This document shows, one piece after another, positions 21,421-59,962 of a stretch of 64,000 nt of DNA. Position numbers and translations under genes: made by a program. Location of the stretch: positions 325,638 through 389,637 of the forward strand of contig OZ220710.1 of the NCBI GenBank assembly GCA_965116635.1. Reading direction: 5' to 3'. This DNA is from Thermodesulfobacteriota bacterium (GTDB lineage Bacteria; Desulfobacterota; Binatia; UBA9968; JAJDTQ01). Position 1 is the stretch's first letter. Every line of letters begins with the position of its first letter. Under the pieces are notes generated by a model, which was given only the letters and a program-made list of their open reading frames with translations, was not told the origin of the DNA and made no database searches.

Positions 21421-21444
21421 GATTCCCCATGCGATTCCCCATGC
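21421..21444. repeat. tandem 12-mer GATTCCCCATGC x2
   Basis: Exact direct repeat, immediately 5' of the two DnaA-box-like 9-mers. Confidence 0.85.
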
Positions 21445-21452
21445 CCGAAAAG

Positions 21453-21486
21453 TTATCCACAGCTTCGCGAGACAAAGTTATCCACA
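21453..21486 (+). promoter_or_regulatory. two exact DnaA-box consensus 9-mers (TTATCCACA) in direct orientation, 25 bp apart
   Basis: AAGTTATCCACA at 21450-21461 and 21475-21486, in the non-coding gap between the aminotransferase and the tail module. Confidence 0.35.
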
Positions 21487-21504
21487 GGTAAAAAGTACGG
21501 TCCG

Positions 21505-21750: not shown

Positions 21751-21856
21751 AGCTCCCGTTGACGGGAGTTCAGGCGCTCCGGATTGCCATCACGGCCGAG
21801 GTGCAGGACCCGGCCGGCGCGTGGCCGCCGATCACGATCGACGGGGAGGTGCCGGC

Positions 21857-22249
21857 ATGACCTTCAAGCTGGTGCTTCCCGAGACGATCGATGTGACGGC
21901 CGACGTGCATCCGCCCGATGGGAGCGGGGCCGAGGCGGGCCAGATCAAGCTCAAGCTGCGCTATCTCTCCCTCCCGGAGCGCCGCGAGCTCATCGCGGAG
22001 CTCCAGTCGTCCACCGACGAAAAGACGACAGACGCCGGGTTGGCGGCGCGGCTGGTGGTGGGGTGGGATGGCCTCCAAGACGAGGACGGCGAGCCTATCC
22101 CCTGGGGCGCATCGTCGCTCGCGTCGGCCATGGAGATCCCGTACTTCCACGACGCCGTCCGGAACGCGATCGCCGAGCATCTATACGGGGCACGGGCAAA
22201 AAACTTCTTCGCGCCGGACGGGAATGGGCCGCCGGCGCTTCCGGAATAG
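21857..22249 (+). CDS. phage tail assembly chaperone (lambda gpG-like)
   Basis: GGGGAGG RBS then ATG 21857; 130 aa, acidic. Lies directly upstream of the tape-measure gene and carries a slippery site near its 3' end. Confidence 0.65.
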   Translation: MTFKLVLPETIDVTADVHPPDGSGAEAGQIKLKLRYLSLPERRELIAELQSSTDEKTTDAGLAARLVVGWDGLQDEDGEPIPWGASSLASAMEIPYFHDAVRNAIAEHLYGARAKNFFAPDGNGPPALPE

Positions 22250-22479
22250 AGCTGTGGGAAGACGAACGCGACGTCGTCGCCGCGTGGGCGTGCCTGAGCC
22301 GCTGCTGGCGCCTCAATGGTCCCGCCATGGGGCCGGCGGTCCCGGAGATAGACTGGGCTCAGGCGCGGGCACTGCTGGATCTGGCGGGGATGCTGCCGCT
22401 CGACAGCGAGACGTTCATGGGAGTGCTGTGGATGGAAGAGGGGGCGACGGAGGTTTTCCGCCAGGCTACGTCCCACTGA
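21857..22479 (+). CDS. tail assembly chaperone G-T fusion via programmed -1 frameshift (21857..22204 joined to 22204..22479)
   Basis: The -1 frame is open from the slip site to 22479 and reads ...KKLLRAGREWAAGASGIELWEDERDVVAAWACLSRCW...EGATEVFRQATSH. Confidence 0.55.
22198..22238 (+). promoter_or_regulatory. -1 ribosomal frameshift signal: A_AAA_AAC heptamer, 6-nt spacer, GC-rich hairpin
   Basis: In the zero frame GCA AAA AAC gives an X_XXY_YYZ site at 22198-22204. Spacer TTCTTC follows. Stem GCGCCGG (22211-22217) pairs with CCGGCGC (22232-22238). Confidence 0.6.
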
Positions 22480-22531
22480 CTATGCACGAAGTTGGCGGGC
22501 GGTCCAATCGGCGGGATGCCCGTCGCGGCGG

Positions 22532-22750
22532 CTAGAACGGTTCGTCGCGCTCGGTGGGAGCCTTTCGCATCGCGTACGAGGCGAGCGCGAAGTATAGCAT
22601 GGCCGGCACCGTGAAAATGATTACCAGCAACAACCCGGCGCCGTTCGATGTGGTGATCGTGACCACCATCGCCAGCGCGGCCCCGCCAGCGAATACAAGA
22701 CCTGCCAGGATGCAGGCCCAGCCCGACACGATGCGCAGACAATCAAGCAT
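22532..22750 (-). CDS. small hydrophobic protein (72 aa, about 2 TM), opposite orientation inside the tail module
   Basis: MLDCLRIVSGWACILAGLVFAGGAALAMVVTITTSNGAGLLLVIIFTVPAMLYFALASYAM... Fills the gap between the chaperone and the tape measure. Confidence 0.4.
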   Translation of the reverse strand: MLDCLRIVSGWACILAGLVFAGGAALAMVVTITTSNGAGLLLVIIFTVPAMLYFALASYAMRKAPTERDEPF

Positions 22751-22785
22751 GCCGGAAAGTCTATTCGCTCTTCCGGGGGCGGTCA

Positions 22786-25034
22786 ATGGGTGAGCTGCTA
22801 CTCCGCGCCCGGTTGCTTCTTACCGGCGCCGGCCAGTTCGTGCGCGGCATGGGGCCGGTTATCGCGCGGATCGGCGCGCTCGTCGTTGCGGTGCGCGGGC
22901 TGCAGGCCGCCGGCCGCACCGTCGTACGGGTGTTCCGCGGCGTCATCGAAGCCACCACGCGCCAGGAGGCGGCCGAATCCCAGATCGCGGCGCGGATCCG
23001 CTCCACCGGCAACGCGGCGGGCTACGGCGCCGATGAACTGCGGCGCATGGCCAGCGCCCTCCAGGATGTGACCACATACGGAGACGAGGCCACCCTGGAG
23101 ATGCAGGCGCTCCTGCTCTCCTTCACCAATATCAGGGGTGACAATTTCCGGGACGCGACCGAGGGCGTGCTCGATCTGGCCACCGGCATCGGCACGGATC
23201 TCCCCTCAGCGGCGATCCAGCTCGGCAAGGCGTTGAACGACCCTGCGCGCGGCCTGGACGCGCTCAGCCGGTCCGGCACCACATTTACCAAATCCCAGCG
23301 CGAGACGATCAAGCAGATGGCCGAAGGCGGCCGTGTCGCCGAAGCCCAGCGTCTGATCCTGCGCGAGCTCGCCCTGCAGTACGGCGGATCGGCGCGCGCG
23401 GCGCGGGACACGTTCGGCGGTGCTCTCACGGCGCTCAGGAACGCCGCCGGAGATCTCCTGGAGGGCCGCGGCGGGCTCAACGAGGCGAAGGACGGCATTG
23501 AATCGCTTACCCGGGTGCTGTCGTCGCCCGAGGTGCGGGACGGTGCGCAGGCCCTGGTCGGGGTGATGACCGAACTGGTTGGCCTGGCCGCCAAGCTGGC
23601 CGCCGTCGGCGTGCCGCCCGTGCTGGCCGCCATCCGAAGTTTCGGCGTCGGCGACGCGGCGGCGAGAGAGCGGCGACGTCGCCAGACAAACGATCTCGGG
23701 GTGCGATACGAGCGTCTGCTGCAAGAGCGCGAGGCATCGGCGAGCCGGACTCGCGGGTCCGTGGCCTGGAGGGCCGGCCGCGGGAGGCCCGGCGGGTCGA
23801 AGGCCTCGTGCGGGATCTCCTGGAAGGTCCGCTCGGCCAGAATACGCGCGTGGCGGCGGAACGGGAGCTCGACCTCACGCTCACGCGGATCCGAACCGTC
23901 GGCGGCCAACTCGAAGACGCACGCCGCGAAGCGGCCGCGCGCCAGGGTCCGGAGATCGCGCGCATAGACCGCGAGTTGGCCCAGATCGAGCAACAGATTT
24001 TCGACATCACCGCGGTGGACGCCGACAAGATCGAACCGTCGCGCGCAGCCAAACCCACGGCCACCGAGCCCACGCCCGGGCCGACGCCTACGCCCAGGCC
24101 GACGCCCGCCGCCGATCGCGCCGTCCGCGCCGCGCTGGAAACCGCCGAGCGCTACAACGAAGCGATCCGGGACATCGCCGCCGGGGAGGCTGCGCTGCTG
24201 CCGGCGCTGGAGCGGAATCTGCGGGCCATCGATGACAATTTGGCGCGCCGCCTGGCGCTTTCGGAGGGGTCGGAGGAGCTTCAGCAGCGGGCGATCGAGC
24301 TGTGGGAGGAGGAGACCGAGGCCGCGATCGCCGCGGCGGCGGCGGTCGAAAGCCTGGGCGACGCTTCGGAGGATGCCGGCGCCCGCACCCTGGCAAGCTG
24401 GGATCAGGCATCCGCGGGGCTGCGGTCGGTCCAGGAGGTCGCCGAGGAGACGATTTCCGGCATGGACCGAGCGCTGACGGATTTCGTGTTCGGCGGCAAG
24501 ACGAGCTTCAGCGACCTGATCAATCACATGATCCGCGAGTTCGCGCGGCTGCTGGTGTTTCAGCCCGCGCTCGACAGCCTCGCGGGCTTCATCGGCGGTC
24601 TTTTTGGCGGCGGCGGCCGCGGGTTCCGCGGCCCCGGAGGCCTTCTGCCGACGGGGCCGAGTGGGTATCCGTCGCTCCATGGGGGCGGTATCGCCGGTCA
24701 GCTCGGCGGCGTCCGTCGCCGCGTGGCGCCGGAGATCTTCGCCGCGGCGCCGCGCCTTCACGGCGGCGGCATCGCCGGCGACGAAGTGCCCACCCTGCTC
24801 CGCAAGGGCGAGGGTGTTTTCACTCCGGAGCAGATGCAGGCGCTCGGAGGCATGGCGGCGCCGAGGATCGAGATCCGGTTCGAGAACCGCGGCACGCCGC
24901 AGCGGGAGGTGTCGCGCGACGTGCCGTTGGACGGCCGCGGGATCGTGATCGGCCTTTTGGTGGACGATCTGGAGCGTCGAGGTCCGGTTTCGCGCGGGCT
25001 CGAGTCGCGCTACGGCCTGCGGCCTCGGGCGTGA
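22786..25034 (+). pseudogene. phage tail tape measure protein, interrupted by a frameshift near 23730-23745
   Basis: The N-terminal part (frame of 22786) has a TMP core-like region (DEATLEMQALLLSFTNI, LPSAAIQLGKALNDPARGLDALSRSGTTF), then degenerates into Arg-rich nonsense. The coherent sequence continues in the frame of 23808 (EPDSRVRGLEGR...FSDLINHMIREFARLLVFQ...HGGGIAG). Confidence 0.75.
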
Positions 25035-25038
25035 TGAG

Positions 25039-25371
25039 ATGGATTGGCCGTCCTACGCACTCATTGTCGCAGGCGCCGGCGCCGAGCGCGGCGCACGGTC
25101 GGTCGAGCGCCCGCAATTCGACGACGGTATGGTGGCACAACGCCGGCGTTGGACGCGGGCGCTCAAGCGCATCGAGGTCCGGTTCATCCTTGTCGATGCC
25201 GACAAGTCTCGGTTCGAGGAATGGGCGGCGAGCTCGCACGCCTGGTTTGACTGGCGAGACGAGACTCGGGCGCGGGTGCTGGGGGGCCAGGGAGGCATAG
25301 AATACAGAGAGCGGGCGGTTGCCGGCGTCCTCACGTGGGACGGGCGGTGCGAGCTCGAAGTGATCGCGTAA
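25039..25371 (+). CDS. minor tail protein, lambda gpM-like (110 aa)
   Basis: Size and position (first gene after the TMP). Pattern F-DG..Q.R.W....I.V.F......F..W.....FDW resembles the gpM family. Confidence 0.5.
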   Translation: MDWPSYALIVAGAGAERGARSVERPQFDDGMVAQRRRWTRALKRIEVRFILVDADKSRFEEWAASSHAWFDWRDETRARVLGGQGGIEYRERAVAGVLTWDGRCELEVIA

Positions 25372-25396
25372 AAACAACCGACGAAAGGGGTGAAAA

Positions 25397-25756
25397 ATGG
25401 CTTTTACTGACCTCGGAAAACAGGTGGTGATGGAAGAAGGACTCGACGGGGCGAGCCGGTATATCTCGCTTCACCTGGCCGACGGCACGGAGCTCGCCGG
25501 GCACGGCTACAGCCGCGCCGAAATCACGCCGGCGCAGATGGCTGTCTCGGGAACTGGCGTGTTGACCGGACCGATCAACCACCCCATCTACACAGCGACC
25601 GACGGCGACGCACAACAAGCGATGAAGGTAGGCCTGTACCGGACCCAGGCCTCAATCCGTAGAATCTCAGATGGCTACTCAAGTCATCACTCTCCTCGAC
25701 GCCTGGCGGATAGGAGACTCGTGGGACGTTCCAGAGGGCTCCCGGCCCGAGATTGA
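25397..25756 (+). CDS. hypothetical phage protein (3' end uncertain)
   Basis: The N-terminal 85 aa look coding (MAFTDLGKQVVMEEGLDGASRYISLHLADGTEL...). The last 30 aa are Arg/Ser-rich and overlap the next gene by 86 nt. Confidence 0.4.
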   Translation: MAFTDLGKQVVMEEGLDGASRYISLHLADGTELAGHGYSRAEITPAQMAVSGTGVLTGPINHPIYTATDGDAQQAMKVGLYRTQASIRRISDGYSSHHSPRRLADRRLVGRSRGLPARD

Positions 25757-26741
25757 CGACGCCCTCGTGGTCGAAGACGACACCTGCTTACGGCTCTTCA
25801 CGATTTGGGAAAATAGGTTCCAGGTCAATTTGGACCCACAGAACGCTACCGCGGTCAACCGCGACTTCACCGCTCGAATGGAGTCTCAAGGGCGGATTGA
25901 TTTGATCAGGGGAGACGTGCGGGCCTCGGTATATTTGGGGAATCATCGCGACGACCGCGAGCCCTACGTATTCACAGACGTAGTCTTCTCCCCGGAAGTG
26001 GTGGCCCACTTCCAGGGAGAGGGAGCACCAATAACACTGACATTCTCGGACGACCCATCGGCCGTCCTCGACGCCGGTCTGGCCGGGTCCATCGCCGGTA
26101 CCGCCGATCTTCTCAATCCTCTGGACGCCTCGGCCACCCTCGACGCCGGTCTGGCCGGGTCCATCGCCGGTACCGCCGACCTCCTCAGTCCACTGGACGC
26201 CTCCGCGACCCTGAGCGCCGGTTTGGCCGGTTCCATAGCCGGCGCCGCCACTCTCGGGGCGGCGATCGCACCGCCGGCTCCGCCCCCCACCGAATCGGGC
26301 TACGAGATCCACCGCCGCGCGTCCGCGCCGCGCGATGTGCTGCTTACGGCCATTGAACTGAACCATCCGCTTCTGCCCACCCCCGCGCGCGCGATACGCG
26401 ACACCGCGTCGCACACCATCGAGGGAAACGAGTACGCTCCGGTGTATTTCGAGGTGAAATGGGCCGACCAGGTCGAAGGCGAGAGTCCGCGTGTGGAGGT
26501 GGTGGTGGACAACGTGGGCGAAGCGCTCACTCAATGGGTCGATATCTCACGCGGCGGCCGCGGTGCGACCATGCGGCTCATGCACGTGCTTAACGACGTG
26601 GTGCAGTGGGATCAGACGGTCGACGTGATCCGCGCGCGGACCGCGGACGTGGTGCGCATCGAGCTGGGATGGGACATCCTGTTGGACGGCCCGGCGGTGA
26701 CCTGGCGTTACGACATGGACACGGCGCCGGGACTGTTCTGA
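25671..26741 (+). CDS. minor tail protein with C-terminal DUF1833/gpL-like domain and internal 24-aa tandem repeats
   Basis: The C-terminal ~170 aa (LLTAIELNHPLL...YAPVYFEVKWADQVEGESPRVEVVVDNVGEAL...TWRYDMDTAPGLF) fit the DUF1833 pattern. Lies between the gpM-like and NlpC/P60 genes. Confidence 0.6.
   Translation: MATQVITLLDAWRIGDSWDVPEGSRPEIDDALVVEDDTCLRLFTIWENRFQVNLDPQNATAVNRDFTARMESQGRIDLIRGDVRASVYLGNHRDDREPYVFTDVVFSPEVVAHFQGEGAPITLTFSDDPSAVLDAGLAGSIAGTADLLNPLDASATLDAGLAGSIAGTADLLSPLDASATLSAGLAGSIAGAATLGAAIAPPAPPPTESGYEIHRRASAPRDVLLTAIELNHPLLPTPARAIRDTASHTIEGNEYAPVYFEVKWADQVEGESPRVEVVVDNVGEALTQWVDISRGGRGATMRLMHVLNDVVQWDQTVDVIRARTADVVRIELGWDILLDGPAVTWRYDMDTAPGLF
26067..26246 (+). repeat. 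in-frame 72-bp tandem repeat, about 2.5 copies (LDAGLAGSIAGTADLL[N/S]PLDASAT)
   Basis: Units at 26067-26138 and 26139-26210 are near-identical. A partial third unit starts at 26211. Confidence 0.9.
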
Positions 26742-26748
26742 CAATGAT

Positions 26749-27126
26749 GTGGGCCGAGAAATAGTGCTGGACGCGTCGGCATCCTGGACCGACTGCGGCG
26801 CCTTCGTTGCGGAGGTCCTCCGCAGGGAGTTCGGTCTGCGAGTCGACCTCCCGCCGGCCGCCGAGTCGCCCAGCTCCCGCGACCGGCAGATAGGCGCCCT
26901 GGTGCGCGAGTTGGCGAGGCCGACCGCGACGCCGACGGACGGCGACGGCGTATTGATGCGGCTTGTCGGACGGCGCGGAACGGTGGGCCACCACATCGGC
27001 CTGTGGGCGTCGCCAGGCTACGTGCTGCACTATTTGCCGCGCGGTCCGGGCGGCGTGCGGCTGCAGGATCTCGCCGGAATGCGGCCTGTCTACCAGGTCG
27101 AGGGGTTCTACCAGTGGCTCGCGTGA
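26749..27126 (+). CDS. NlpC/P60-family peptidase, lambda gpK-like tail protein
   Basis: 125 aa with GTG start. WTDCGAFV (catalytic Cys context) and GHHIGLW (His). Conserved position before the host-specificity gene. Confidence 0.7.
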   Translation: MGREIVLDASASWTDCGAFVAEVLRREFGLRVDLPPAAESPSSRDRQIGALVRELARPTATPTDGDGVLMRLVGRRGTVGHHIGLWASPGYVLHYLPRGPGGVRLQDLAGMRPVYQVEGFYQWLA

Positions 27127-30084
27127 CGCTGGACCACTGGCCGCACCCGCTCACCGCGGACGGCCGCGAGATCCGCGAAGTCGACGTGTCTGAGGCTCTG
27201 GCCCTGATTGGACGGCGCGCCGATGTGCACGTAATCGTCGACGGCCACATGGCGCCCGGATCAGATGTGGCTCTCCGGGGGGGCGAAATTGTCACGGTCC
27301 GCCCCAGGCTCGCGGGCGATGACAGCAACCCTATCGCCACGATTCTCCAAATCGGCCTGGTGATCGCCGGCGCCTACATCGGCGGCCTGGGCGGCTTTGG
27401 GGCGCAGTTGCTGGCGGCGGCCGTCGTCATCGTCGGCGGTCTGGTCATAAATGCGCTTTTTCCGCCGCGGGAACCCGAACTGCCGGGCGACCAGGAGCGG
27501 CGCGAGGTCTACTCGCTGCGCGGCGGCTCCAACGCGGCCCGGCACTACGATCCTCTCCGGCTCGTGATGGGCACCCATCGCATCTTTCCGGACCTGGGCG
27601 CGGAGCCGTACACCGAATATGAGGAAGATGACGAAGGCGTTGTACAGCAATACCTGTATCAAATCCTGCACTGCGGCGTCGGCGATCTGGATTTGGAAGA
27701 GGCCAGCTATGCCGGCACGCCGCTTTCGAGTTACGACGAGGTTGTCCTGGTCAGTTCCGACGCAGACGGCCGGATTGCTCTGCAGGGCCTGTTCAGCGAC
27801 GTATCCACGGCCGACGGCGCGGACCTTGCCGATGCCGAGTGGGTTGAACGCACTACCGAGGACGGCACCGACCGGATCGCGATCGATCTTATCGGGCACC
27901 TTTACCGCGTGACTAATCGAGGCGGCGTCGTCCAGAACACCGTCGACATCGAGGCCGGGTACCGACTGGCGGACGGCTCGCTCGGGGAACATTTCACGCC
28001 GCTGGCAGTCCCGCAGTTCGCTCACGGCAGCTCCGAGATCTATCGCCGCACCTTTCGCTACACCCTGCCCGCGGCCGGCCGCTACGTGGTCCGCGTGCGT
28101 CGGACCACGGTGCCGTCCGAAAATCAGCGGGTGCGCGACAATATCTCTTGGACGGCCCTCCGGTCCTACCGGCCGGACAGTACGGACTACAGCGGACAGA
28201 CGCGCCTTGGGCTGCGCGTGCGCGCCAGCGGCCAGGTCCGCGGCGCCATGGACAAGATCGCGCTGGTGGCGCACCAGCGCATCCCGGTATGGGACGGTGC
28301 TGCATGGACACCGGGCCGCAGCTCGAACCCGGCCTGGTTAGCCCGCTGGTTTGCGTTGGGCCTCTACCACGATGGCCGCCTGGTGGCCGGGATGGGTTTG
28401 CCGGCGGAACGCATCGATGAGGACGTGCTCGTTGCCTGGGGAGCGTGGTGCGACCTGAACCGCCTGCAGTGCAACTTCGACCTCCACGGCCCCGCCACTC
28501 GCCGCGAAGTCATGGAGATCATCTGCAAGGCCGGCCGCGCGACGATTTCGTGGCACACCGGCAAGTTCGGCGTCATCTGGGACGCCCCGCGGCCGGTGAG
28601 CGGGCTTATCACACCGGGCAACGTATTGGCGGGTTCGATGCGAGTCGACTGGGCTGCCGGCCCGCGTGCCGAGGAGGTCGTCTGCCGCTACATCGATCCC
28701 GACAGGGACTGGCAGTGGACGCCGGTTCGTCGCACCATGCCCGGCGTCGCCAGCACCCCGGTCCGAAGCGTGACGCAGACGCTGCGCGGCGTGACGTCCC
28801 GGCGGCAGGCCATTGAGGAGTGCGCCCTCCAGGCTGCCCGCCAGGCGTATTTCGACCGAGAGATCTCCTGGCGGATGAGCCTCGAGGGTTTCGCTCTGAC
28901 GCGGGGGTCCGTGCTCGGCGTGGCCCACAGCTTGGTGGGCGGCGGGACGGCCGGACGGGGTGTGACGGTGGCGGGCGCGTCCGCCGAGATTAGGTGGCGC
29001 GGCCCGGGCGACGCGCCGCGGATGACGGGCGGCGACTGGCTCGAAATAAGGTATCCTGACGGCTCATTCGTGGCGCGTCGACTGGCGCTGGCCAACACGG
29101 CGGACGGTGTGATCACGGTCACCGTGGCGGACCCCTGGCCGGAGATGGATGGCGAGCCCATCGACGCGCTGTGGCGGCACTACGCGGCCAACGGCGCTCC
29201 GGTAAACGTCCGCATTGCTGCGATTCGGCCGGTCTCGGAGTCAGAGGTCGAGGTCGCGGCCATTGACGACGTTCCGGAATATTACGCAGCGGCCAGCGCG
29301 GCCGAAGACCAGCCCTTGCCCGACATTCGGTCCGTAGATTCACGTATTCCCCGAGTCGTTCGCGGGATCGTGTCTGAACGCCGCATCGCCGCGGGCGACG
29401 TCCAGGTAGTCGAGCTCGAGCTGTTGCTGGTGGTCGCAGGCGACTGGCGCGGCGGTGTCGTGCGCGCGGCCGTGGGGGACGGCGCGCCGGCGGTGGTGGC
29501 GGTGCTGGTCGACGGCGACACCGCTGCGCACTGGATCGGCCCTCAGTCCGGCCGGATCACCATCACGGTGGTGCCGGGTACCGCTGCGGCGCCGGCGGGC
29601 CCCGTGTGGACTATAGAATACACCATCGGGGGGCTGCTGTTGCCACCGCCACCGCCTACCGACCTGGCCGTCGTCGCCCTGGGGCTCAACCGCGGCTATT
29701 CCTGGGTTCCGCCGGACGTGCAGGACCTGCTCGGCGTGTTGATCCGGTACGCCACCGCCGAGGGTAGAGCTTCGCGCCGGCGCGGATGCGGCGACGAGTG
29801 TGCTTGTAGGCAGCGTGCTGACGGTTTTCACCGCGACATCGGCCGGCACGGACGATGCGGTTGTCACAGTGGCGCCGGCGACCCCGGCCGGGATCTCGCG
29901 GAGGACGCTTAGCGTCGCCCAGACGCCGCTCGGCGTTCAGCGGCGGCTATATATCTACATGACTGTCGATTTCGGTGTTCCTGTCTGGAAGGCCCATATT
30001 CCGGCGGCGGGGAACCAGGACATATCGGAAGAGATGCGGGTGACGGCGCGCCTGCGCGTCGAAGAAGCGGAGCCCTTCGCATGA
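27123..30084 (+). pseudogene. gpI-like / host-specificity protein J-like fusion, with a frameshift near 29757-29790
   Basis: GTG 27123 overlaps the gpK-like stop (GTGA). The N-terminus resembles lambda gpI (ubiquitin-like segment, then the hydrophobic IATILQIGLVIAGAYIGGLGGFGAQLLAAAVVIVGG). It is followed by a long J-like body. After IRYATAEG the frame becomes Arg/Cys/Gly nonsense, while the +1 frame stays coding to 30084 (VELRAGADAATSVLVGSVLTVFTATSAG...). Confidence 0.7.
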
Positions 30085-30581
30085 GTATAGCAGTGGCGCT
30101 CAGCGGCGGTTTGGATTCGACAGCTTTGCTTTACCGGGAAGCTGTAACGACAGATACGGAGCTGGTCGCGATCCACATCACGCGTAAGGTCGAAGATCCT
30201 TTTCGTGCCCACGCGGCGGCGGCGTGGATCAATAGACATATCCGGTCGATCACGCTTGTGGAGGAGCCCGGGAAAGAGTCCGAGGGTGGGTCGCCTCGCA
30301 CGGTGTACGCCGCCCTGGCTCGCGCAGTAGCTTCCAGGGGGGCAATTACCCGCCTTCTGCATGGCAGGTCCGCCTGGAACGTGGGCACCGGCCGTGGCCT
30401 CCTCGAAGGCACGGTTTCTCTGCGCGATTTCTACGCGCAGCACACCGGCGTCCCCATGGAATACCCCTATTTTGAGCCCGTCCCTCGGGGTCGTTTCGAG
30501 ATTGAGGCGACGCTGCCCGCGGCCCTCCACGCGCTTGTGGCGCGGTGCGGCCGACATTCTGACGCGCTACAACGCGCTTAA
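30081..30581 (+). CDS. short PP-loop (SGGxDS) ATP-pyrophosphatase-like protein, QueC/ExsB-like N-terminus
   Basis: MSIAVALSGGLDSTALLY... Only 166 aa, with no C-terminal Cys cluster. Its ATG overlaps the preceding stop (ATGA). Confidence 0.45.
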   Translation: MSIAVALSGGLDSTALLYREAVTTDTELVAIHITRKVEDPFRAHAAAAWINRHIRSITLVEEPGKESEGGSPRTVYAALARAVASRGAITRLLHGRSAWNVGTGRGLLEGTVSLRDFYAQHTGVPMEYPYFEPVPRGRFEIEATLPAALHALVARCGRHSDALQRA

Positions 30582-30675
30582 CCCTCGATCGCGGGCGGCT
30601 GTAGCGGGCAACCGAGGTGGTCCTGGTCTACAGGACAGGAAGGCGGCAGAGATCAGGTGTATTCGGTATGGTGGA

Positions 30676-32961
30676 TCATGGTTTGTCGCGGTCAAGGGCC
30701 ATCACAAGGGGTGGAAGAAGCAGGAAATCCGCCAAGAAGGCCAGAACGATCGTCATGGATATCAGCACCCCCATGGACCAACTGCTCTCGAAGCCCGACA
30801 GCGTGAACACCAGGAACCCCAACGACAAGACCGCGGTGGTCGTCGCCAACGCTTGACCGACCGTGCGGAAGACCGCTCGGATCGCCTCCCGGACGGAGAC
30901 TCCCTCCCGGCGCAGTTTCAGGTAGTGGGTGAGGAAATGGATCGTGTCGTCAACGATGATCCCGAAGGCGATCGCCGTCACCACCGAAGCCGCCAAGCCG
31001 ACGTTGCCGATCAGGTGACCCCACAAACCGAAGCTCATCGCGGGGGGGATGAAGTTCGGTACGAGAGCGATCAGACCGATCCGGATGCTCTTGAAGACCC
31101 AGATCAGGATGAACGATATGATCGCCATCGCGGTGAGCGTGCCCCACAGCATGCTGTGGATGTTCCTTTGGGAGAGGTGCGCGAAGACGATGCTGAGGCC
31201 GGTTGCGTCGGTGGCGAGTCCCGGAGCGTTGTCCGCGAGCCAGGCCCTGGCGCGTGCGTTCAACCCGCGTTGCTCCCGGGACGATGAGTCGCGCAGCACC
31301 ACGGTCATGCGCGTAGCCGTCTTCGCCACGTCGATGCGGTCGTTCAGGTCGCCGCCGAAGGGGAGCGAGAGCTCGTAGAGCAACAAATACTGGGCTGCAA
31401 GCTTCGGATCGTCAGGCAGCCGATGGAATGACGGGGCATCGCCGTGCATGTTCCTGTTCAACCGTTTCATGATGTCCGTGAATGCCTGAACGTGCATCAC
31501 TTCCGGCTGGCTCCGGAACCATTCCGCAAAGGAATCTACCTTTCGCAGATACTCCGGATCGGTGATTCCGCCCTCGCGTCCCGCCTTGAGCGAGTATTCC
31601 AACCGGTCCAGGCCCGTCAGGTTCTCGATGACGAAGTCCGTGTCGCGGCGAAACTCGTAGCGATCATCGAAATACCGCGTCCAGTTGTCGCCCAGCTCAT
31701 TCCGGGGAATGCCGAGAACGAGAATCACGGTCGCCAGGGAGACAAACCAGAGCAGGAATCGGCGGCGCGCCACAACGAACACGCCGAAGCGGTCGAAAAG
31801 GGAGACTCGCCCGGAATGGACCCGGGAGGCACGCAACGGAAGGATGGAGAGCAGAGCCGGGAGCAGGGTCACGGAGAAAAGGAAAGTGCAGAACGCGCCG
31901 AATGCCACCATATTGCCCAGAACGTGGAACGACGGCGACTCCGCAAAGTTCAGGCTGAGGAAGCCGATGGACGTGGTGAACATGGTGAGAAACACGGGAT
32001 AGACGTTGCCGGCAAGGGACTTCGCGATGGCGTCGTTTCTTGCCAGACCCTCGGTCATGCCCGACAGGGTGGTCGTGACGATGTGGATCGAGTAGGCGAC
32101 GGCGAACGTCATCACGATAATTGGCATGCTGCCGCTGACGGGCGTGAGCACCGTGCCCACCCAGCCGGCGAAGCCCGCCGTCGAGGCCAGGACGAACGCG
32201 AGCAGGACTGCGATTGCGCACGTGCCCAGGAGCGAACGGAGAAGAAGGGCGGTGGCCGCGAGAATCACCAGGAACACCACGGGTATCAACGTCTCGACAT
32301 CGTCCTGCGTAGCCTGGGCAAAGGCGCGGTTCATCACAACGTTGCCCGTCAGGAAATAGGCAATATCCGGGTGCCGTGCCCGGGCCTCGTCGAGTATTGT
32401 GTTGAGGGAATCGGTGATCTCGACCCACGCCACCTCCGGATTCTCCGGCAGGACGAAACTGATCGCCACGCCGCCTACGCGGGCGTCATGAGACACCAGG
32501 CGGCCGGACAGTTCGACCTCGTTCAGCGCGGTTCGCCTGACTCGCTCCAAGTCCGCATCGTTCAGCGACCTCGCGTCTTCGACCAGAGGCTCGACGATCA
32601 GGTCGTCGCCCTCCGCCCGGCTGTGGGAATAGTTGGTCAGGGAGTCCACCCGGTTCGAACGGGGCACGCGCCACGCGGCTTCAGTCAATTCCTCGATGGC
32701 GCCCAAGGCCTCCCGGGTGAAGACCCCGCCGCTACGGGGCGCAACGGCAACCAGCGCCGCGTTGGATGCGGCGTAGGTATTCTCCAGGGCGTCGAATGCA
32801 AGGAGGTGGGGATCGTCGGGACTGAACAGCGTGCGATAGTCGCTGGTGACCACGAGAAAGCGCGCACCCGATGCCATGGCCAGCATGGCCAGCGACGCGA
32901 GGAAGATGACCCACCACCGATGCCGCAGGATGGCTGCGTTATAGCGTTCCAGATTCAACAA
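30676..32961 (-). CDS. MMPL/RND-superfamily transporter (HpnN-like lipid exporter type), 761 aa
   Basis: Two blocks of about 6 TM segments alternating with two large soluble loops. N-terminus RHRWWVIFLASLAMLAMASG..SDYRTLFSPDDP. C-terminal block GIIVDDTIHFLTHY. Confidence 0.85.
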   Translation of the reverse strand: MLNLERYNAAILRHRWWVIFLASLAMLAMASGARFLVVTSDYRTLFSPDDPHLLAFDALENTYAASNAALVAVAPRSGGVFTREALGAIEELTEAAWRVPRSNRVDSLTNYSHSRAEGDDLIVEPLVEDARSLNDADLERVRRTALNEVELSGRLVSHDARVGGVAISFVLPENPEVAWVEITDSLNTILDEARARHPDIAYFLTGNVVMNRAFAQATQDDVETLIPVVFLVILAATALLLRSLLGTCAIAVLLAFVLASTAGFAGWVGTVLTPVSGSMPIIVMTFAVAYSIHIVTTTLSGMTEGLARNDAIAKSLAGNVYPVFLTMFTTSIGFLSLNFAESPSFHVLGNMVAFGAFCTFLFSVTLLPALLSILPLRASRVHSGRVSLFDRFGVFVVARRRFLLWFVSLATVILVLGIPRNELGDNWTRYFDDRYEFRRDTDFVIENLTGLDRLEYSLKAGREGGITDPEYLRKVDSFAEWFRSQPEVMHVQAFTDIMKRLNRNMHGDAPSFHRLPDDPKLAAQYLLLYELSLPFGGDLNDRIDVAKTATRMTVVLRDSSSREQRGLNARARAWLADNAPGLATDATGLSIVFAHLSQRNIHSMLWGTLTAMAIISFILIWVFKSIRIGLIALVPNFIPPAMSFGLWGHLIGNVGLAASVVTAIAFGIIVDDTIHFLTHYLKLRREGVSVREAIRAVFRTVGQALATTTAVLSLGFLVFTLSGFESSWSMGVLISMTIVLAFLADFLLLPPLVMALDRDKP

Positions 32962-33206
32962 GACGGATTCCCTGGCAGGAACGTCCAGTTCGAGGCCTTC
33001 ACAGGGCCGCCGCCTCGATGTGGATCACTTCCGGGTACGGGCGGTTTGCACGACAGGCTTGCCGGCGGTGGACTACCATGGAGAGGACTGCGACGCACGG
33101 ACGTGATCGGGCATATTATAGGAGATTCCTCCTTTGTCGTACTGGGCGGACTCGAAGATCTGACCAAACGCCTCCTGCCTCATGATTTGGCGCCCCTTGA
33201 CGAGCC

Positions 33207-34259
33207 TTATGAGTCGGTTGCGCAGCCGGTAGTAAAGCAGCACAAGGTCCTGCTTCTGAGGGTTTTGGGATAGTTGTACTGGTCCGCCAGTTCGTTGCCG
33301 ATGAGGGCTCGCGAAAGGCGATAGGCATACATCTGCAAGCTTCTTATCTCGGCTTCTTCGGTCAAACCCGCCATCGCGGGAATCGCCTTGAATACCGCGT
33401 TGGCAACACCAATGGCGTCGTCGTCCGGCGGTGGTTCACACATGTGGCCGATCTCGTAGGTTTTCCTCGCCTGAGCTTCATTGGTGAAGAGAATGGCTTC
33501 AGGTACCCCCAGAAGATAGCCGGCATAGCGCCAGATCCTGACAATGCTGTCCTTTTGTTCCTGGCTGACGGTCGCGCCCATGGCGATGGCGTGCTCGAAC
33601 TGGCGTATGGAAAACGTGTACAACGCGATCCCGCCCAGGTGCGCCATGCTCAGAGGCATCCCCCAGGCGTCGACATCCCAGAGGCCGGAATCCGCCAACA
33701 GCTTCCGTACCCGGGCATGAATGAAGCGAATGCGCGTGGACACTTTCCATCCGGCGCCGTCCCGTTTCAAACCGCCGGGGAAATAGACCTCGACCATATG
33801 GCGGTTGTTTTGCCGGAGCCGCCTTTCGGCTCCCGGCCCCAGCCCGGTCACCCGGCCGGTGATCGAGAAAGACTTGCTCACCAGCGTCGAAAAGCCCTCC
33901 ACCGCGCTCCCCACCGCGTAGGCGATCAGCATGTCGCTCATGTTCGCATAGAACGCGCGCATGCCTGGTTTGAATGACTCGAAATCGACCCAGGGTGGCA
34001 CCGTGGAGTCTGCCTTGTCGAAGAAATCCCGGAGCACCCTCGGCGCGGTCCGCAGAACGTCCGGCTCCTGCTCGATGCCGGCCTTGACGAACCGGTGCAA
34101 ATCCTCGGGAGGCAGTCCGTGCATCTCCTGCATGACGGGATCCAGTTCGGCATCGCCAAGGACGGTGTGTCGAATGTAGTTGACCGCCGTCTCCTCGTCG
34201 TGGAGACGCGCCCTGGCAAAGCCTTCGGTGTATGCTGACGGGCAGTCCGGCATGGTCAC
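33207..34259 (-). CDS. MpaB-family oxygenase (DUF2236)
   Basis: 350 aa with RIRFIHARVRKLL and surrounding pattern typical of DUF2236/MpaB. Motif-level call only. Confidence 0.6.
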   Translation of the reverse strand: MTMPDCPSAYTEGFARARLHDEETAVNYIRHTVLGDAELDPVMQEMHGLPPEDLHRFVKAGIEQEPDVLRTAPRVLRDFFDKADSTVPPWVDFESFKPGMRAFYANMSDMLIAYAVGSAVEGFSTLVSKSFSITGRVTGLGPGAERRLRQNNRHMVEVYFPGGLKRDGAGWKVSTRIRFIHARVRKLLADSGLWDVDAWGMPLSMAHLGGIALYTFSIRQFEHAIAMGATVSQEQKDSIVRIWRYAGYLLGVPEAILFTNEAQARKTYEIGHMCEPPPDDDAIGVANAVFKAIPAMAGLTEEAEIRSLQMYAYRLSRALIGNELADQYNYPKTLRSRTLCCFTTGCATDS

Positions 34260-34743
34260 CTCCCAGGATTCATCGAAAACCGGTCGTGATTACATCAGCA
34301 GCCGTCGCCATGATTGCTGGCAATAGGCCTACAAGCGGTTTGGAACTCCATGGGTTTGCGCGCCCCGGACGGGGGCACTCGGAGGTACATCCGGATGCGA
34401 TGCGAGGGACCGGCCGCGATGCGGCCGAGGATGGAACTCTTGACAAGGATCAGCGCCATCGGCCCACTCCTTCGTTGCACCGCACAGGCCGGTGCCGGCC
34501 GGTGCCTCGGTCAGTTTCCGAATATCAGTGGTGGCACTATAGGTGCTCTGTGTCAAGAGTAATAGAAAATATGTCTATGGCAAATCCTTACGTGATTCGA
34601 ATTTTTCTCGCTTTTGAGGAGGGCGTGGATGCGGCCCCAACGTTCGCCGGTTGGTTCCAGTCGGGCATGAGGGGTTCGACGCAGGGAGCGGGCCGCGGCC
34701 ACGACTTCGTCGCCGAGCACGCTGCTCGGGTCGTCTCAACCGG

Positions 34744-35544
34744 CTATGCGAAAGCCTGGTCCAGGCGGGCCATGTCTTCAGCGGACAGACGCCAGTCCGA
34801 CGCGCCGCAGTTCTCGGCGGTCCGGGAGACGCTGTCGGATTTGGGAATGGCGATGACGTTGTCGTGGGAGACGCACCAGTTCAGCGCCACCTGGGCGGGC
34901 GTCTTCTCGTGCCGTTGGGCGATCTCCCGGAGCACTTTCGTGCCGCGCGACGAAAACAGGCCGCCGCCCGCCAGTTTGCCGCTGTCCAGCGGCGTGTAGG
35001 CGATGATGGTGACGCCGTGGCTCTGGCAATAGGGCATCAGCGTCCGCTCGATCTCGCGCCGCCGGAGGTTGTACAGCACCTGATTCGATACGATGGGGTG
35101 GTGGCTCAGGGCGGCCTGGGCTTCGGCCAGCTCCGTCGTCGAGAAATTGCTGACGCCGATGTACCGTATCCGCCCGCTGTCCACCAGGGCAGCCATGGCC
35201 CGCATGGTTTCCTCGATGGGAGTGCTGCGGCTCGGCCAGTGAACCTGGTAGAGGTCGATGGTGTCGATATCCAGCCGGCGAAGGCTGGCGTCCGCGGCCT
35301 GCAGCACCTGGTCGTATCCCAGATGATCGCCGGATACCTTGCTGGCGATGAACACCCGTTCGCGCATGCCCTGGACGGCTTCGCCCACCACGTCCTCGGT
35401 CCGATACATCTCGGCCGTGTCGATCAGGTTCGCGCCCAGCTCGATGCCGTGTTGGAGCGGGGCCACGCCGCCCCGGTATTGCCAGACGCCCAGGCCGATC
35501 TCGGGCACCTGTGTCCGGGTGCCGCCGAGTGTTTTCGTCTTCAT
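34744..35544 (-). CDS. aldo/keto reductase
   Basis: IGLGVWQ, IDTAEMY, DLYQVHWP, IRYIGVSNF, VIAIPKS; 266 aa. Confidence 0.9.
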   Translation of the reverse strand: MKTKTLGGTRTQVPEIGLGVWQYRGGVAPLQHGIELGANLIDTAEMYRTEDVVGEAVQGMRERVFIASKVSGDHLGYDQVLQAADASLRRLDIDTIDLYQVHWPSRSTPIEETMRAMAALVDSGRIRYIGVSNFSTTELAEAQAALSHHPIVSNQVLYNLRRREIERTLMPYCQSHGVTIIAYTPLDSGKLAGGGLFSSRGTKVLREIAQRHEKTPAQVALNWCVSHDNVIAIPKSDSVSRTAENCGASDWRLSAEDMARLDQAFA

Positions 35545-56402: not shown

Positions 56403-56565
56403 TAGTGTGGTGTCTGGTTAATTCGCGTCATAATCTGCGGGTCTTTTTCGCCGTCGGCTGCGTTGCTCTTCCTCGCGTGGTGCCCGCCACTGCTCGTCAT
56501 CGCGCCTTGCCGACGACAAAAAATCCTCCGCATATTATGACGCGAATTAACCAGACACCACACTA
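56403..56565 (+). mobile_element. MITE-like element, copy A (163 bp, 38-bp terminal inverted repeats)
   Basis: TAGTGTGGTGTCTGGTTAATTCGCGTCATAATCTGCGG at 56403-56440, with its reverse complement at 56528-56565 (one mismatch). No coding capacity. Confidence 0.7.
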
Positions 56566-56652
56566 GCTGGTGCTTTGGCCTTTCTGGCTTCGGCAGTTTG
56601 CCGGTGTCTTGAGTTCTGTACCTGGTTATCACGGCGCGCAGGAGGATGTCCT

Positions 56653-58872
56653 TTGGGTCCGGCTTCGGAGAATACCATAGAGCGGCGTTTGGCTGACCAC
56701 ATCGTGCGGCACAGATGCTTGTGGTTCATGGCGGTAGTAGTGACGGTGGGGTTGTTGGGTGTTGGGGTGTCAATGTTGAACGTCAAATCCGATTACAGGG
56801 ACTTCGTGGACCCGAAAGACCCGTACCGGCAGGCGCTGGAGATGATGGCCGAGAGGTATTCCGAGGTGGGTGATGTGGCGGTCGTCCTGCTCCGGCCGCG
56901 GAGTGAGGACATATTTCAACCAAGGGTTCTTGCCGCCACCGGTTGGGTGACTGAGGAAATCGCCAAGCTGGCATACGTCACACGGGTCCAGTCAGTAACA
57001 CAATTACTCAGGAGTCGACGTGCCGAGGACACGGCAAGCGTGGTTTCCACTTCGAGCGCGGCGGCAAGCCTACGAGCCGGTGACTTGAGTGGTTTCCTGG
57101 TTTCGCGCACTGGCGACGCGCTGGCCGTAGTGGCGTACGTGGATCTTGCCGCTTCCAGCGATCGGACGGCGGCGGCGAGGACAGTGGCGAGGGACTTGCG
57201 CAAGTTAAGACGGCTGGCGGAAGACCGGTACGACATGTCTGTCTATCTGCTCGGTTCGGTGATGTTCGATCAAGCGATGGTGGACGCCGTTGCTCTGGAC
57301 TCCAAGTGGCTGGTGCCGGGGATTTTCGCACTATTCTTCGTACTTGTAGGAATGGCGTTCCGTTCCGCGGGAGTGCCGGCGGCCGTAACAGCATGTCTGG
57401 TGTTGACCGTCGTTGGAGCCTTTGGGAGTGCAGGGTGGTTGGGGGTGGATATCAATGTCTTCTCGTTTTCGGCGATTTTCGTGATGGTGACCATAGCCAT
57501 CGCCGACAGCGTCCACTTGGTGGCTAACTACGTAATCACGTTACGGGACCGTGAGCCTGCGGATGCAATGCGATGTAGTTTGGAACTGAATCTGCGCCCG
57601 ATCTTCCTTACGTCCATTACCACGGTGGCGGGCCTTCTTGGCCTCTGTTTTAGTCCTTCGCCGCCAGTGCGGGCGCTAGGAGCGGTGACGGCACTCGGTG
57701 TTCTGGTGGCGATGATCGTCACGGTGGGGTTGGTGCCGATGCTTGTGATGGCGGCGCGGCCGAGGGCCATGTTGTCCATCACGTGGTTGAACGCTGCGTT
57801 CAGTCAACTGGCTGCGGTGGTGGTACGGCGTCGCGTGTTTTTCGGCAGTGTGACAGTGGGCCTCTGCGTGGTTGCCACGGTGCCCATTTACCGAAACGTT
57901 CTTGATGACAATTCCCTGGAGTGGTTTTCGGACAGGTTGGAGTTCGGTCGGGCTATTGAGTTTGCAGACGGCCGCATCGCGGGCCTGCGGTCGGTGACCT
58001 ACTCGGTGGATTGCGGGGAAGCGAATGGCGTGTTCACCAGGGGATGTGGAGACGAGACGAATCGCTTCGCAGAGTGGTTGCTTGCACAGCCGGAGACGAT
58101 TCACGTCCGCTCCTTTCGGAACTGTCCTGGTCTGACGTATGGTGCAATGAAGTCAGGCGAGGGTACGAGCGCGAGCGCAGGAGGGGCACTCCGGAGGACT
58201 GGTAGAGCCTGCGACCTCATCGACCCGATGGCTCGCCATTCGAAAGTTGTGGTCGAACTTGGAAAGGTGAGTAACGAAGAACTGCTATCTTTCGAAGAGA
58301 AGACCAGAGGCTGGTTGGGCCGGAACTCCTTCGCTTACGACGTTCAGTCGGCCAGTGTCCCGCTCATGTTCGCTCGACTTAGTCAGGAGAACCTCCGGGG
58401 AATGGTATACGGCGGCATTCTTGCCGTATTTCTGATCACGGTTGTAGTGGGTGTGGGCCTATGGTCGTGGAGGTATGCGTTGGTGAGCCTGGTGCCGAAC
58501 ATACTTCCGATGTTGGCCGTCTACGGTTGCTGGGGCTTCCTCGTTGCGGAAGTGAACATCGGAGTCGCTGCGATGTTTAGTACCGCGTTGGGTGTAGTCG
58601 TGGACGACACGATCCACATAATGACGAAATTTCGTGCAGCATTGCGGAGTGGATGCGACACGGAACAGGGCATACAATATGCCCTGAAGACGGCCGGACC
58701 GGCCGTCTTTTTTACCACGTTGTGCCTTTGTGTAGGGTTTTTCATCCTTGGTCTATCGGCGTTTCAGTTGTCCGCGGTTCTGGGCGTGTTGGTAGGGTCC
58801 ACACTCCTCGCGGCCTTGGGGCTGGATATATTTGTGCTTCTGCCGTTACTAACGTGGCGACGTTTGCGGTAG
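56653..58872 (+). CDS. MMPL/RND-superfamily transporter, second copy (739 aa from TTG 56653)
   Basis: AGGAGGA RBS 6-7 nt before the in-frame TTG. Same two-block architecture as the 30676-32961 product (SDYRDFVDPKDP; GVVVDDTIHIMTKF). Visibly lower GC than its neighbours. Confidence 0.85.
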   Translation: MGPASENTIERRLADHIVRHRCLWFMAVVVTVGLLGVGVSMLNVKSDYRDFVDPKDPYRQALEMMAERYSEVGDVAVVLLRPRSEDIFQPRVLAATGWVTEEIAKLAYVTRVQSVTQLLRSRRAEDTASVVSTSSAAASLRAGDLSGFLVSRTGDALAVVAYVDLAASSDRTAAARTVARDLRKLRRLAEDRYDMSVYLLGSVMFDQAMVDAVALDSKWLVPGIFALFFVLVGMAFRSAGVPAAVTACLVLTVVGAFGSAGWLGVDINVFSFSAIFVMVTIAIADSVHLVANYVITLRDREPADAMRCSLELNLRPIFLTSITTVAGLLGLCFSPSPPVRALGAVTALGVLVAMIVTVGLVPMLVMAARPRAMLSITWLNAAFSQLAAVVVRRRVFFGSVTVGLCVVATVPIYRNVLDDNSLEWFSDRLEFGRAIEFADGRIAGLRSVTYSVDCGEANGVFTRGCGDETNRFAEWLLAQPETIHVRSFRNCPGLTYGAMKSGEGTSASAGGALRRTGRACDLIDPMARHSKVVVELGKVSNEELLSFEEKTRGWLGRNSFAYDVQSASVPLMFARLSQENLRGMVYGGILAVFLITVVVGVGLWSWRYALVSLVPNILPMLAVYGCWGFLVAEVNIGVAAMFSTALGVVVDDTIHIMTKFRAALRSGCDTEQGIQYALKTAGPAVFFTTLCLCVGFFILGLSAFQLSAVLGVLVGSTLLAALGLDIFVLLPLLTWRRLR

Positions 58873-58889: not shown

Positions 58890-59113
58890 AGTGTGGTGTC
58901 TGGTTAATTCGCATCATAATCTGCGGAGGATTTTTTGTCGTCGGCAAGGCGCGATGACTTGTAGGGGCGACCTGCGGTCGCCCTTCAGTGGCGGGCACCA
59001 CGCGAGGAAGAGCAACGCAGCCGCCCTTCGACTTCGCTTCGCAGCTACGCTCAGGATGCGCGTAGCGAAAAAGACCCGCAGATTATGACGCGAATTAACC
59101 AGACACCACCCTA
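58890..59113 (-). mobile_element. MITE-like element, copy B (inverted relative to A, with two nested insertions)
   Basis: Same TIRs (58890-58926 and 59077-59113) and the same core in reverse complement. Also carries a GC palindrome (58965-58983) and a REP-like arm (about 59023-59064). Confidence 0.7.
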
Positions 59114-59125
59114 GGGAGGCAAGTC

Positions 59126-59632
59126 ATGAATCAAACCGTTGGTGAGAAGTTTCCGGATCTGGCGCTCAAGGACCAGACCGGCCAGGAGGCGGCATTGTCG
59201 GGGATCACCGAGGGCAAGTTCCCCCTCATCGTGGTGTTCTATCGCGGCTACTGGTGAGGGAAGTGCGTGGTGCAGTTGCGCCACCTGGTCACCCTGCAGG
59301 AGGAGCTTCCCTCGGCCTATTGCCGTGTCGCGGTCGTCAGCGTCGACCCGCCGCAAGTCAACGGGGCGCTTAGAAACGGCCTCGGGGCGACGTTCCCGTT
59401 CCTGAGCGACCATGAGCACAAGGCCATCGAGGCCCTGGACCTGGTCGACACCTCTGACAAAAAGCACGGGACCATCGCGATTCCATACGCCTTCTCGCTG
59501 CTGCCCGATCTCACGGTCCACCGCATCTACAACGGCTGGTACTACGTGGGCCGGCCCACCAACGAAGAGTTGCGGGCCGATATGCGGGCGATGATCCAGC
59601 AGTGCCGGGGAGACTACGATACGCAGGCGTGA
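59126..59632 (+). CDS. peroxiredoxin/redoxin-like (AhpC/TSA fold) protein, candidate selenoprotein (in-frame TGA at 59255-59257 read as Sec)
   Basis: GGGAGG RBS, then ATG 59126. Reads MNQTVGEKFPDLALKDQTGQEAALSGITEGKFPLIVVFYRGYW-TGA-GKCVVQLRHLVTLQEEL..., in frame with track ORF 59267..59632. The FYRGxWCxxCxxQL motif of this family places the TGA on the first Cys of CxxC. Confidence 0.7.
59267..59284 (+). promoter_or_regulatory. SECIS-like hairpin downstream of the peroxiredoxin-like in-frame UGA
   Basis: UGA-N9-GUGGUGC-AGUU-GCGCCAC: a 7-bp stem (one G-U pair) with a 4-nt loop containing GU, starting about 17 nt after the UGA. Confidence 0.5.
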
Positions 59633-59704: not shown

Positions 59705-59962
59705 ATGATTCAGCCACAAGAAATTGAGGATACGCTGGGGCGGGTGTTCCCGGGTTGTCTGGTGCCGATGATCAAGGACCTGACCGGCGGAGGCGACCAC
59801 TACCAGGTGGTCATTGTGCATGATTCCTTCGCCGGCAAGGGTCTCATCGACCAGCACAAGATGGTCTACGACGCGCTCAAGGACGAGCTCGGGGACGAAC
59901 GGATCCATGCGCTCTCGTTGAAGACCTTCTCGCCCGAGCAATGGGAGAAATACGGCGCGTAG
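59705..59962 (+). CDS. BolA-family protein
   Basis: Start at MIQPQEIEDTL; HYQVVIVHDSFAGKGLIDQHKMVYDAL...IHALSLKTFSPEQW. Confidence 0.85.
   Translation: MIQPQEIEDTLGRVFPGCLVPMIKDLTGGGDHYQVVIVHDSFAGKGLIDQHKMVYDALKDELGDERIHALSLKTFSPEQWEKYGA

Follow-up and report, generated by a model that had tools for sequence, protein, structure and literature searches.

A gene for a small redox protein with an in-frame UGA codon was studied in a 64,000-nucleotide (nt) stretch of DNA, called the window below, from a Thermodesulfobacteriota bacterium (contig OZ220710.1). The locus is very probably a real selenoprotein gene, in which, judging from sequence comparison, the UGA at codon 44 would be decoded as selenocysteine (Sec). 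The interval 59126–59632 is one gene, and its product is a single 168-residue cytoplasmic protein with a thioredoxin fold, belonging to the AhpC/TSA (BCP-like) superfamily. All coordinates are positions in the window, and the redoxin gene lies on the + strand. The original prediction, made from the letters of the window, had described a redoxin-fold selenoprotein whose UxxC motif opens with Sec, with a Sec insertion sequence (SECIS) hairpin further downstream, and this reading was supported by every check that was run.

The reading frame began with an ATG at 59126–59128, passed through 43 sense codons ending in ...LIVVFYRGYW, reached a TGA, and continued with GKCVVQLRHL... for 124 sense codons up to the terminal TGA. 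The ribosome-binding site, the start codon and the open frame across the TGA were thus all present where they had been predicted (Table 1). The Pfam AhpC/TSA profile PF00578 could be aligned across the UGA (residues 5–128, profile positions 1–118, E = 4e-17, 62.7 bits against a cutoff of 26), and therefore the upstream 43 codons encode the N-terminal strands of the redoxin fold. Homology of this part to a redoxin N-terminus had been named in the original prediction as a point on which the reading depended.

To follow the UGA through the family, relatives were collected by a protein search, which gave 630 database relatives (the best 120 were listed), and by a metagenome scan, which gave at least 553 confirmed stretches. 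DNA was compared for 105 sequences, namely the window, 24 species-level genomes and 80 metagenome contigs. The 24 genomic orthologues came mostly from Candidatus Binatia, with a few filed under older Deltaproteobacteria or Syntrophobacterales labels; complete genomes carrying the redoxin gene included OY762897.2, OZ244070.1, OZ219754.1 and OZ243916.1. The metagenome relatives were one contig at 99% identity (L026) and 79 at 58–67%.

TGA stood at codon 44 in all 105 sequences, over a range of 58–99% protein identity, and an open stretch of at least 43 codons preceded it in each; neither TAA nor TAG was seen at this codon in any of them. The codons beside it varied only synonymously: Arg40 and Gly41 were written with four codons each, Lys46 with AAG (66 sequences) or AAA (39) and Cys47 with TGC (97) or TGT (8), all four residues being invariant. 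The ratio of non-synonymous to synonymous substitution rates (dN/dS) was 0.18 for codons 1–43 and 0.12 for codons 45–160. As judged from these codon patterns, purifying selection is acting on both sides of the UGA, and the claim that this codon was more than a chance event was borne out. A purine-rich Shine-Dalgarno sequence, a short spacer and an ATG were found in all 24 genomic orthologues (mostly GGAGG; GGAGA or TGAGG in three). The terminal stop of the redoxin gene varied among these orthologues (TGA in 18, TAA in 4 and TAG in 2), whereas the internal TGA was constant. Of 37 Pfam-supported genes in the window, 20 ended in UGA, which made it the commonest true stop there. The conservation of the codon, its synonymous-only neighbours, the dN/dS values, the start signals and the drifting terminal stop together exclude an error, a pseudogene, a reassigned codon and an arrangement of two open reading frames (ORFs).

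Pairs of Sec and Cys homologues, which had been proposed as a further check, were found. Twenty of the 120 listed protein matches were full-length and about 50% identical, and all of them had a Cys aligned to the UGA, within C-P-K/R-D/E. The remaining 100, which were the closest of those listed, were Sec-type calls of about 120 residues, which comprised the post-UGA part only and lacked the active site. L025 (Saccharimonadales, 43% identity), the one distant genomic match, also had a Cys codon (TGT) at the UGA position. The background motif assumed in the original prediction, FYRGxWCPxC, did not hold: the Cys-type relatives read F-[YSF]-R-G-x-x-C-P-[KR]-[DE] and had no second Cys. The position of Cys47 was occupied by Asp or Glu in all Cys-type homologues, Cys47 being specific to the Sec clade. 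In a neighbour-joining tree, 101 Sec-type proteins formed a single clade beside paraphyletic Cys-type sequences. Many of the Cys-type homologues (about 275 residues; P0080, P0087, P0095, P0098–P0100 and others) carried the redoxin fused to a C-terminal cold-shock domain (PF00313); this unusual architecture occurred in Binatia-labelled metagenome-assembled genomes (MAGs) among others.

The predicted hairpin of 7 bp with an AGUU loop was confirmed, starting 9 nt past the UGA. In the published model of the bacterial SECIS (bSECIS), an apical loop of 3–9 nt is carried on a stem of 4–16 bp, G lies within the first two loop positions and is usually followed by G or U, the distance from UGA to loop is 16–37 nt, and the energy is −7.5 kcal/mol or lower (PMC13188914). 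The hairpin of the window fell within the model in all four respects (AGUU, 7 bp, 16 nt and −11.9 kcal/mol), which answered the call for a SECIS check. Hairpins in all 105 sequences had loops of 4–7 nt starting with AG(U/G) and stems of 5–8 bp, and their spacing from UGA to loop was exactly 16 nt, the lower limit of the model range. With the energy of the isolated stem, 52 of the 105 sequences agreed with the model in every respect. At one site the stems differed between clades, which had GAGGUGC/GCGCCUC, CAGGCGC/GCGCCUG or a shifted GGGUGCC/GGCACCU with a 6-nt loop.

Synonymous variation was reduced over the hairpin. Codons 47–52 (C-V-V-Q-L-R) were each written with one codon in all 25 close orthologues, and synonymous entropy over codons 45–53 was 0.20 against a gene mean of 0.64, the fifth lowest of 151 windows of codons. 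Compared with synonymous recodings of the same stretch (mean −5.5 kcal/mol), the hairpin of the window was more stable (z = −2.9, p = 0.01), and each of 76 distinct sequences was more stable than the mean of its own synonymous recodings (median z = −1.9). Of four Cys-type genes, three had no comparable hairpin. An extended lower stem, GGGAAG (59258–63)/CUUCCC, which appeared in the minimum-free-energy fold of the whole region, was rejected, for the AAG to AAA changes of Lys46 and the changes at Gly45 were uncompensated.

Several results weigh against decoding as Sec, or against the hairpin as its signal. The sequences that deviated from the model, from more distant clades, had perfect 5-bp stems of −6.4 to −7.1 kcal/mol when isolated, short of −7.5; taken as a 30-nt region, these variants reached −8.0 to −8.9 kcal/mol. 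In one Cys-type gene, L106 from an Acidobacteria MAG, the homologous site carried a 5-bp hairpin with an AGUU loop (z = −1.6). It may be the relic of a SECIS that remained after Sec was exchanged for Cys, or it may simply result from the conserved Gln-Leu codons. (The same L106 locus has two thioredoxin genes upstream in divergent orientation.) Formal covariation was weak: by pair counts over 29 distinct hairpin sequences, 45 of 500 shuffles reached the observed score, and the five inner pairs, kept in 29/29, were nearly invariant. The two outer pairs showed compensatory double changes (GC/CG in 3 and AU/UA in 6) and were unpaired in many other sequences. The AGUU loop derives from the conserved Gln-Leu codons CAG-UUG, and so nucleotide conservation is partly driven by the protein. 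A scan of the whole window at the Rfam gathering thresholds gave no match. As for the machinery, no selA, selB or selD was detected by Pfam on about 40 ORFs of the window or in the fetched loci, and no tRNA-Sec by ARAGORN in the window and the 24 orthologous loci. With weak covariation and a protein-derived loop, the SECIS assignment rests on shape, position, stability and the suppression of synonymous change.

A second UGA-containing gene bears on whether this lineage uses Sec. The original prediction had pointed to a further W-U-x-x-C case in the window, a DUF3179 gene, and this case was real: PF11376 was aligned across its UGA with E = 1e-70, and the TGA was conserved in other genomes. The encoded protein looks secreted and has the motif VSW-U-PLC; 20 nt past the UGA lies a hairpin of 7 bp whose loop is CGUGU. 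All 120 best listed protein matches were calls of about 221 residues starting after the UGA. On two Binatia chromosomes that also carry the redoxin gene, and in a SAR324 MAG, a TGA interrupted DUF3179 and was followed by a hairpin of identical sequence. DUF3179 is listed as a selenoprotein family (PMC13188914). That the same genomes contain two conserved UGA-containing redox genes, each with a SECIS-like hairpin, argues strongly, if indirectly, for Sec decoding in this lineage, and we infer that the Sec machinery is present in the source genome. No report of Sec use in Candidatus Binatia/Binatota was found in a literature search.

The fold and the active site were compared with those of known redoxins. 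PDB sequence and profile searches matched AhpE, A. pernix BCP (2cx3; family profile E = 1e-15), BcpB and ResA. A model of the Cys-type homologue P0101 (AlphaFold; pLDDT 83, pTM 0.82) was used as a stand-in for the window protein; its active Cys lay just ahead of the long first helix (46–64), and it superposed best on BCP/PrxQ structures (template-modelling score, TM, 0.83–0.88), with ResA next. In the alignments to AhpE, A. pernix BCP and BcpB, Sec44 fell on the Thr/Ser of the peroxiredoxin (Prx) motif PxxxT/SxxC and Cys47 on the peroxidatic Cys. Pro120, invariant in the family, was aligned with the catalytic Arg of peroxiredoxins (2cx3 and 5epf alignments). The Prx tetrad Pro/Thr/Cys/Arg was thus replaced by Arg40/Sec44/Cys47/Pro120, and the motif read R40-x-x-x-U44-x-x-C47. 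With three of four tetrad residues replaced, the protein does not qualify as a canonical peroxiredoxin, and the Asp or Glu that Cys-type relatives have at the peroxidatic position speaks against that identity as well. The description as 'peroxiredoxin/redoxin-like' in the original prediction stood for the redoxin fold but not for the label of peroxiredoxin. Curated NCBIfam cutoffs were not reached by the window protein for any model (bits against cutoff: SelL_rel_redox 32.3/120, BCP 27.4/140, TlpA 19.3/230, ResA 18.9/170, redoxin_TUGYCR 16.5/100).

Judged by domain, motif and published class descriptions, the redoxin fits the known 'Prx-like, thioredoxin-like UxxC' class of selenoproteins. To our knowledge, this 'Prx-like' class has been known for twenty years without biochemical characterisation. 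A 'Prx-like thiol:disulfide oxidoreductase, PF00578, UxxC' is among the high-confidence selenoprotein predictions of PMC13188914, in which Kryukov & Gladyshev 2004 is cited for the class; G. sulfurreducens WP_010940744.1 is one of its reference members. A 'Prx-like 1' selenoprotein was reported in the Global Ocean Sampling (GOS) survey (PMC2398784), and the class has been described as having a thioredoxin-like UxxC in place of the Prx TxxC/TxxU (PMC1088965). Members of this class and the window protein have in common an AhpC/TSA domain, Sec as the first residue of UxxC, Cys homologues and a SECIS just 3′ of the UGA, whereas the subfamily of the window is set apart by the signature F-Y-R-G-Y-W-U-x-K-C, a BolA or EgtD neighbour and single-Cys Cys-type relatives.

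Other relatives were more distant in one or more features. PrxU of Eubacterium acidaminophilum (PxxxTxxU) is likewise a selenoprotein of this superfamily fold with a SECIS in the coding region, but its Sec replaces the peroxidatic Cys (TxxU). In the window protein, Sec takes the place of the Thr that lies three residues ahead of that Cys, and neither the Pro nor the Arg of Prx is kept. BCP/PrxQ and AhpE (3hjp, 5epf, 2cx3 and 1xxu) were the best structural and sequence matches (TM 0.77–0.88) and differ in the tetrad, the BCP score being far under its NCBIfam cutoff. The ResA/TlpA oxidoreductases have the same W-C/U-x-x-C at the N-terminus of a helix (profile E ~1e-7), and this group matched the P0101 model with TM 0.79–0.87 normalised to the target and 0.67–0.70 normalised to the query. 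These proteins, however, are membrane-anchored and extracytoplasmic, whereas the window protein begins directly with the fold; Pfam position 1 is aligned to residue 5, and so there is no room for a signal peptide. The nearest NCBIfam models were the SelL-related redox protein NF040769 and the TUGYCR family NF053656, both selenoprotein-related thioredoxin-fold families; the window protein scored under both cutoffs and is a member of neither.

Other explanations of the internal UGA were weighed against decoding as Sec. The TGA might be a nonsense mutation or an assembly or sequencing error, the locus being a pseudogene or the true codon TGC or TGT. Gene callers do take this TGA as a stop, and the 100 Sec-type entries among the 120 listed matches start after it; but neither a sequencing error nor a nonsense mutation can account for the same codon in 105 independent assemblies, which come from different projects and species, and the selection seen on both sides, together with the absence of TAA and TAG from a codon whose terminal counterpart interchanges freely, leaves this explanation a vanishingly small probability. 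It is hardly more probable that the locus yields two products, with translation of a 43-residue N-terminal peptide stopping at the UGA and re-initiation at GTG 59267 giving a protein of 121 residues. A possible ribosome-binding site, GAGGG at 59256–59260, does lie 7 nt upstream of this GTG, and such starts are picked by automated callers. Codons 45–47, between the UGA and the GTG, nevertheless evolve as translated codons, with Lys46 and Cys47 invariant under synonymous change; the GAGG and the GTG are not kept in other clades (e.g. TGACCGAAGTGCGCGTGC), and a C-terminal fragment would be left without the first beta-strands and the entire active site. Hairpins in mRNA can stimulate read-through, so the UGA could also be read without Sec, by a near-cognate Trp or Cys tRNA helped by the hairpin, or have been reassigned in the lineage, and Sec machinery is not among the genes of the window. 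UGA, being the commonest true stop there, is hence not reassigned, while the homologues have their redox-active Cys at this position, the hallmark of Sec/Cys exchange, the hairpin matches a SelB-type SECIS in its G-U loop and its fixed spacing of 16 nt, and DUF3179, a listed selenoprotein family, shows the same features in the same genomes. Reading of the UGA without Sec is very unlikely on these grounds, if somewhat less so than the two explanations above.

Given insertion of Sec at codon 44, the main activity of the protein might still be that of a peroxidase and not of a general thiol:disulfide oxidoreductase; in such a peroxidase Sec44 reduces hydroperoxides as in glutathione peroxidases or Sec-containing peroxiredoxins and Cys47 resolves the selenenic acid. 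Sec is an excellent nucleophile for peroxide reduction, and the closest structures and sequences are the BCP/PrxQ and AhpE peroxiredoxins. Against this stand Arg40 in place of Pro, Sec44 in place of Thr and Pro120 in place of Arg, and also the lack of a Cys at the peroxidatic position in Cys-type relatives; ResA-type CxxC oxidoreductases match nearly as well, and UxxC proteins are classed as thioredoxin-like in the literature. We consider a peroxidase possible but the less likely function. From its sequence features, the protein would be a selenol/thiol oxidoreductase and not a classical peroxiredoxin; disulfide, sulfenate and peroxide are all candidates for its physiological oxidant.

A mechanism can be proposed from this anatomy. 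The hairpin, presenting its AGUU loop 16 nt past the UGA, would act as a bacterial SECIS and recruit SelB with Sec-tRNA(Sec) to the ribosome at the UGA, where read-through would replace termination. In the finished protein, Sec44 at the N-terminus of the first helix would be the attacking nucleophile, its oxidised substrate being a disulfide, sulfenate or peroxide. The oxidised Sec44 would then be resolved by Cys47 to a selenenylsulfide, which a cellular thiol system would re-reduce. The positions of these elements are listed in Table 1.

Table 1. Positions of the predicted Sec-redoxin gene, its signals and neighbouring or related genes in the window
Feature	Position	Strand	Remarks
Shine-Dalgarno GGAGG	59115–59119	+	read directly; 6 nt ahead of ATG
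Sec-redoxin coding sequence	59126–59632	+	168 residues (167 sense codons and predicted Sec44); terminal stop TGA 59630–59632
UGA codon 44, putative Sec	59255–59257	+	opens the W-U-G-K-C redox motif
Cys47 codon TGC	59264–59266	+	presumed resolving Cys of UxxC; in alignments, at the site of the peroxidatic Cys in BCP and AhpE
SECIS-like hairpin GUGGUGC-AGUU-GCGCCAC	59267–59284	+	7-bp stem, 4-nt loop; from folding
BolA/IbaG-like gene	59705–59962	+	85 residues; 72 nt 3′ of redoxin; Pfam BolA E = 7e-18
DUF3179 gene	17812–18798	−	UGA at 18499–18501

All 24 orthologous loci and L026 had a BolA gene 3′ of the Sec-redoxin gene, as did 40 of the 79 other metagenome loci. Linkage depended on the motif class: it was seen in 30/32 loci with GKCQ, 3/3 with GKCE, 3/3 with AKCQ and 4/7 with U-P-K-C-Q, and in 0/33 with P-K-C-[A/G/E/S]. 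No terminator-like site was found in the gap between redoxin and BolA, and the two genes are probably co-transcribed. By analogy with BolA proteins, which pair with glutaredoxins, the conserved neighbour suggests that the two proteins work together. Like monothiol glutaredoxin-BolA pairs, the locus couples a small thioredoxin-fold redox protein to a BolA/IbaG-type protein, here ending ...RIHALSLKTFSPEQW; the partner in the window, however, has an AhpC/TSA fold with UxxC and is not a CGFS glutaredoxin, and an iron-sulphur (Fe-S) role would be a proposal.

In the sister group with P-K-C-[A/G/E/S], mostly U-P-K-C-x-C, an EgtD-type histidine methyltransferase gene (PF10017, E = 1.5e-99) lay directly upstream of the redoxin gene in 26 loci, and in 21 loci the redoxin stop was overlapped by a 270-residue phosphoribosyltransferase-like gene with a VVDDTVFSG motif and no Pfam match. 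These sister-clade loci included the metagenome contigs L035, L053, L056, L069, L072 and L094. The sister clade may link the Sec-redoxin family to ergothioneine or selenoneine chemistry. A bolder suggestion is that Sec-redoxin and BolA form a dedicated module, in which the UxxC protein replaces a monothiol glutaredoxin in a selenium-dependent redox or Fe-S switch, and that the EgtD sister clade ties the family to ergothioneine- or selenoneine-type chemistry; we offer this speculatively and think it improbable.

The window genes for enoyl-CoA hydratase (ECH), CoA-transferase and MMPL had no counterpart upstream of the redoxin gene in any of the 24 orthologous loci, and so the upstream context was uninformative on function. 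Two copies of an element resembling miniature inverted-repeat transposable elements (MITE) or repetitive extragenic palindromes (REP), at 56409–56559 and 58890–59112, flanked the MMPL gene (56575–58872) and had terminal inverted repeats of about 37 nt (AGTGTGGTGTCTGGTTAATTCGC...). The second copy stopped 2 nt short of the redoxin ribosome-binding site, and synteny with the 24 orthologous loci broke exactly there. In L026, at 99% identity, the right arm of the element was found at the equivalent place.

Elsewhere in the window, aminotransferase and aldo/keto-reductase genes, which are adjacent in the Binatia chromosomes L110 and L111, lay about 13.5 kb apart (19628–21199 and 34744–35544). The island at about 21200–34740 contained phage-tail-like genes at 23808–29912 (tape measure, DUF1833 and GpJ-like), a second MMPL gene (30676–32961) and an MpaB-like oxygenase gene; it looks like an inserted prophage remnant or a tailocin-type island. 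An ORF of 3424 residues occupied 2335–12609 (+), and the syntenic gene of L110 had polyketide-synthase domains (ketoacyl-synt, Acyl_transf_1, PS-DH, methyltransferase and others).

The subfamily is abundant, yet all 100 Sec-type calls among the 120 listed matches were truncated and it has no curated NCBIfam model; with these calls corrected, many genomes from soil and sediment would regain a redox enzyme. Together with DUF3179, the redoxin gene provides evidence for Sec use in Candidatus Binatia. The BolA neighbour of one clade and the EgtD neighbour of its sister clade give functional leads for the Prx-like selenoproteins.

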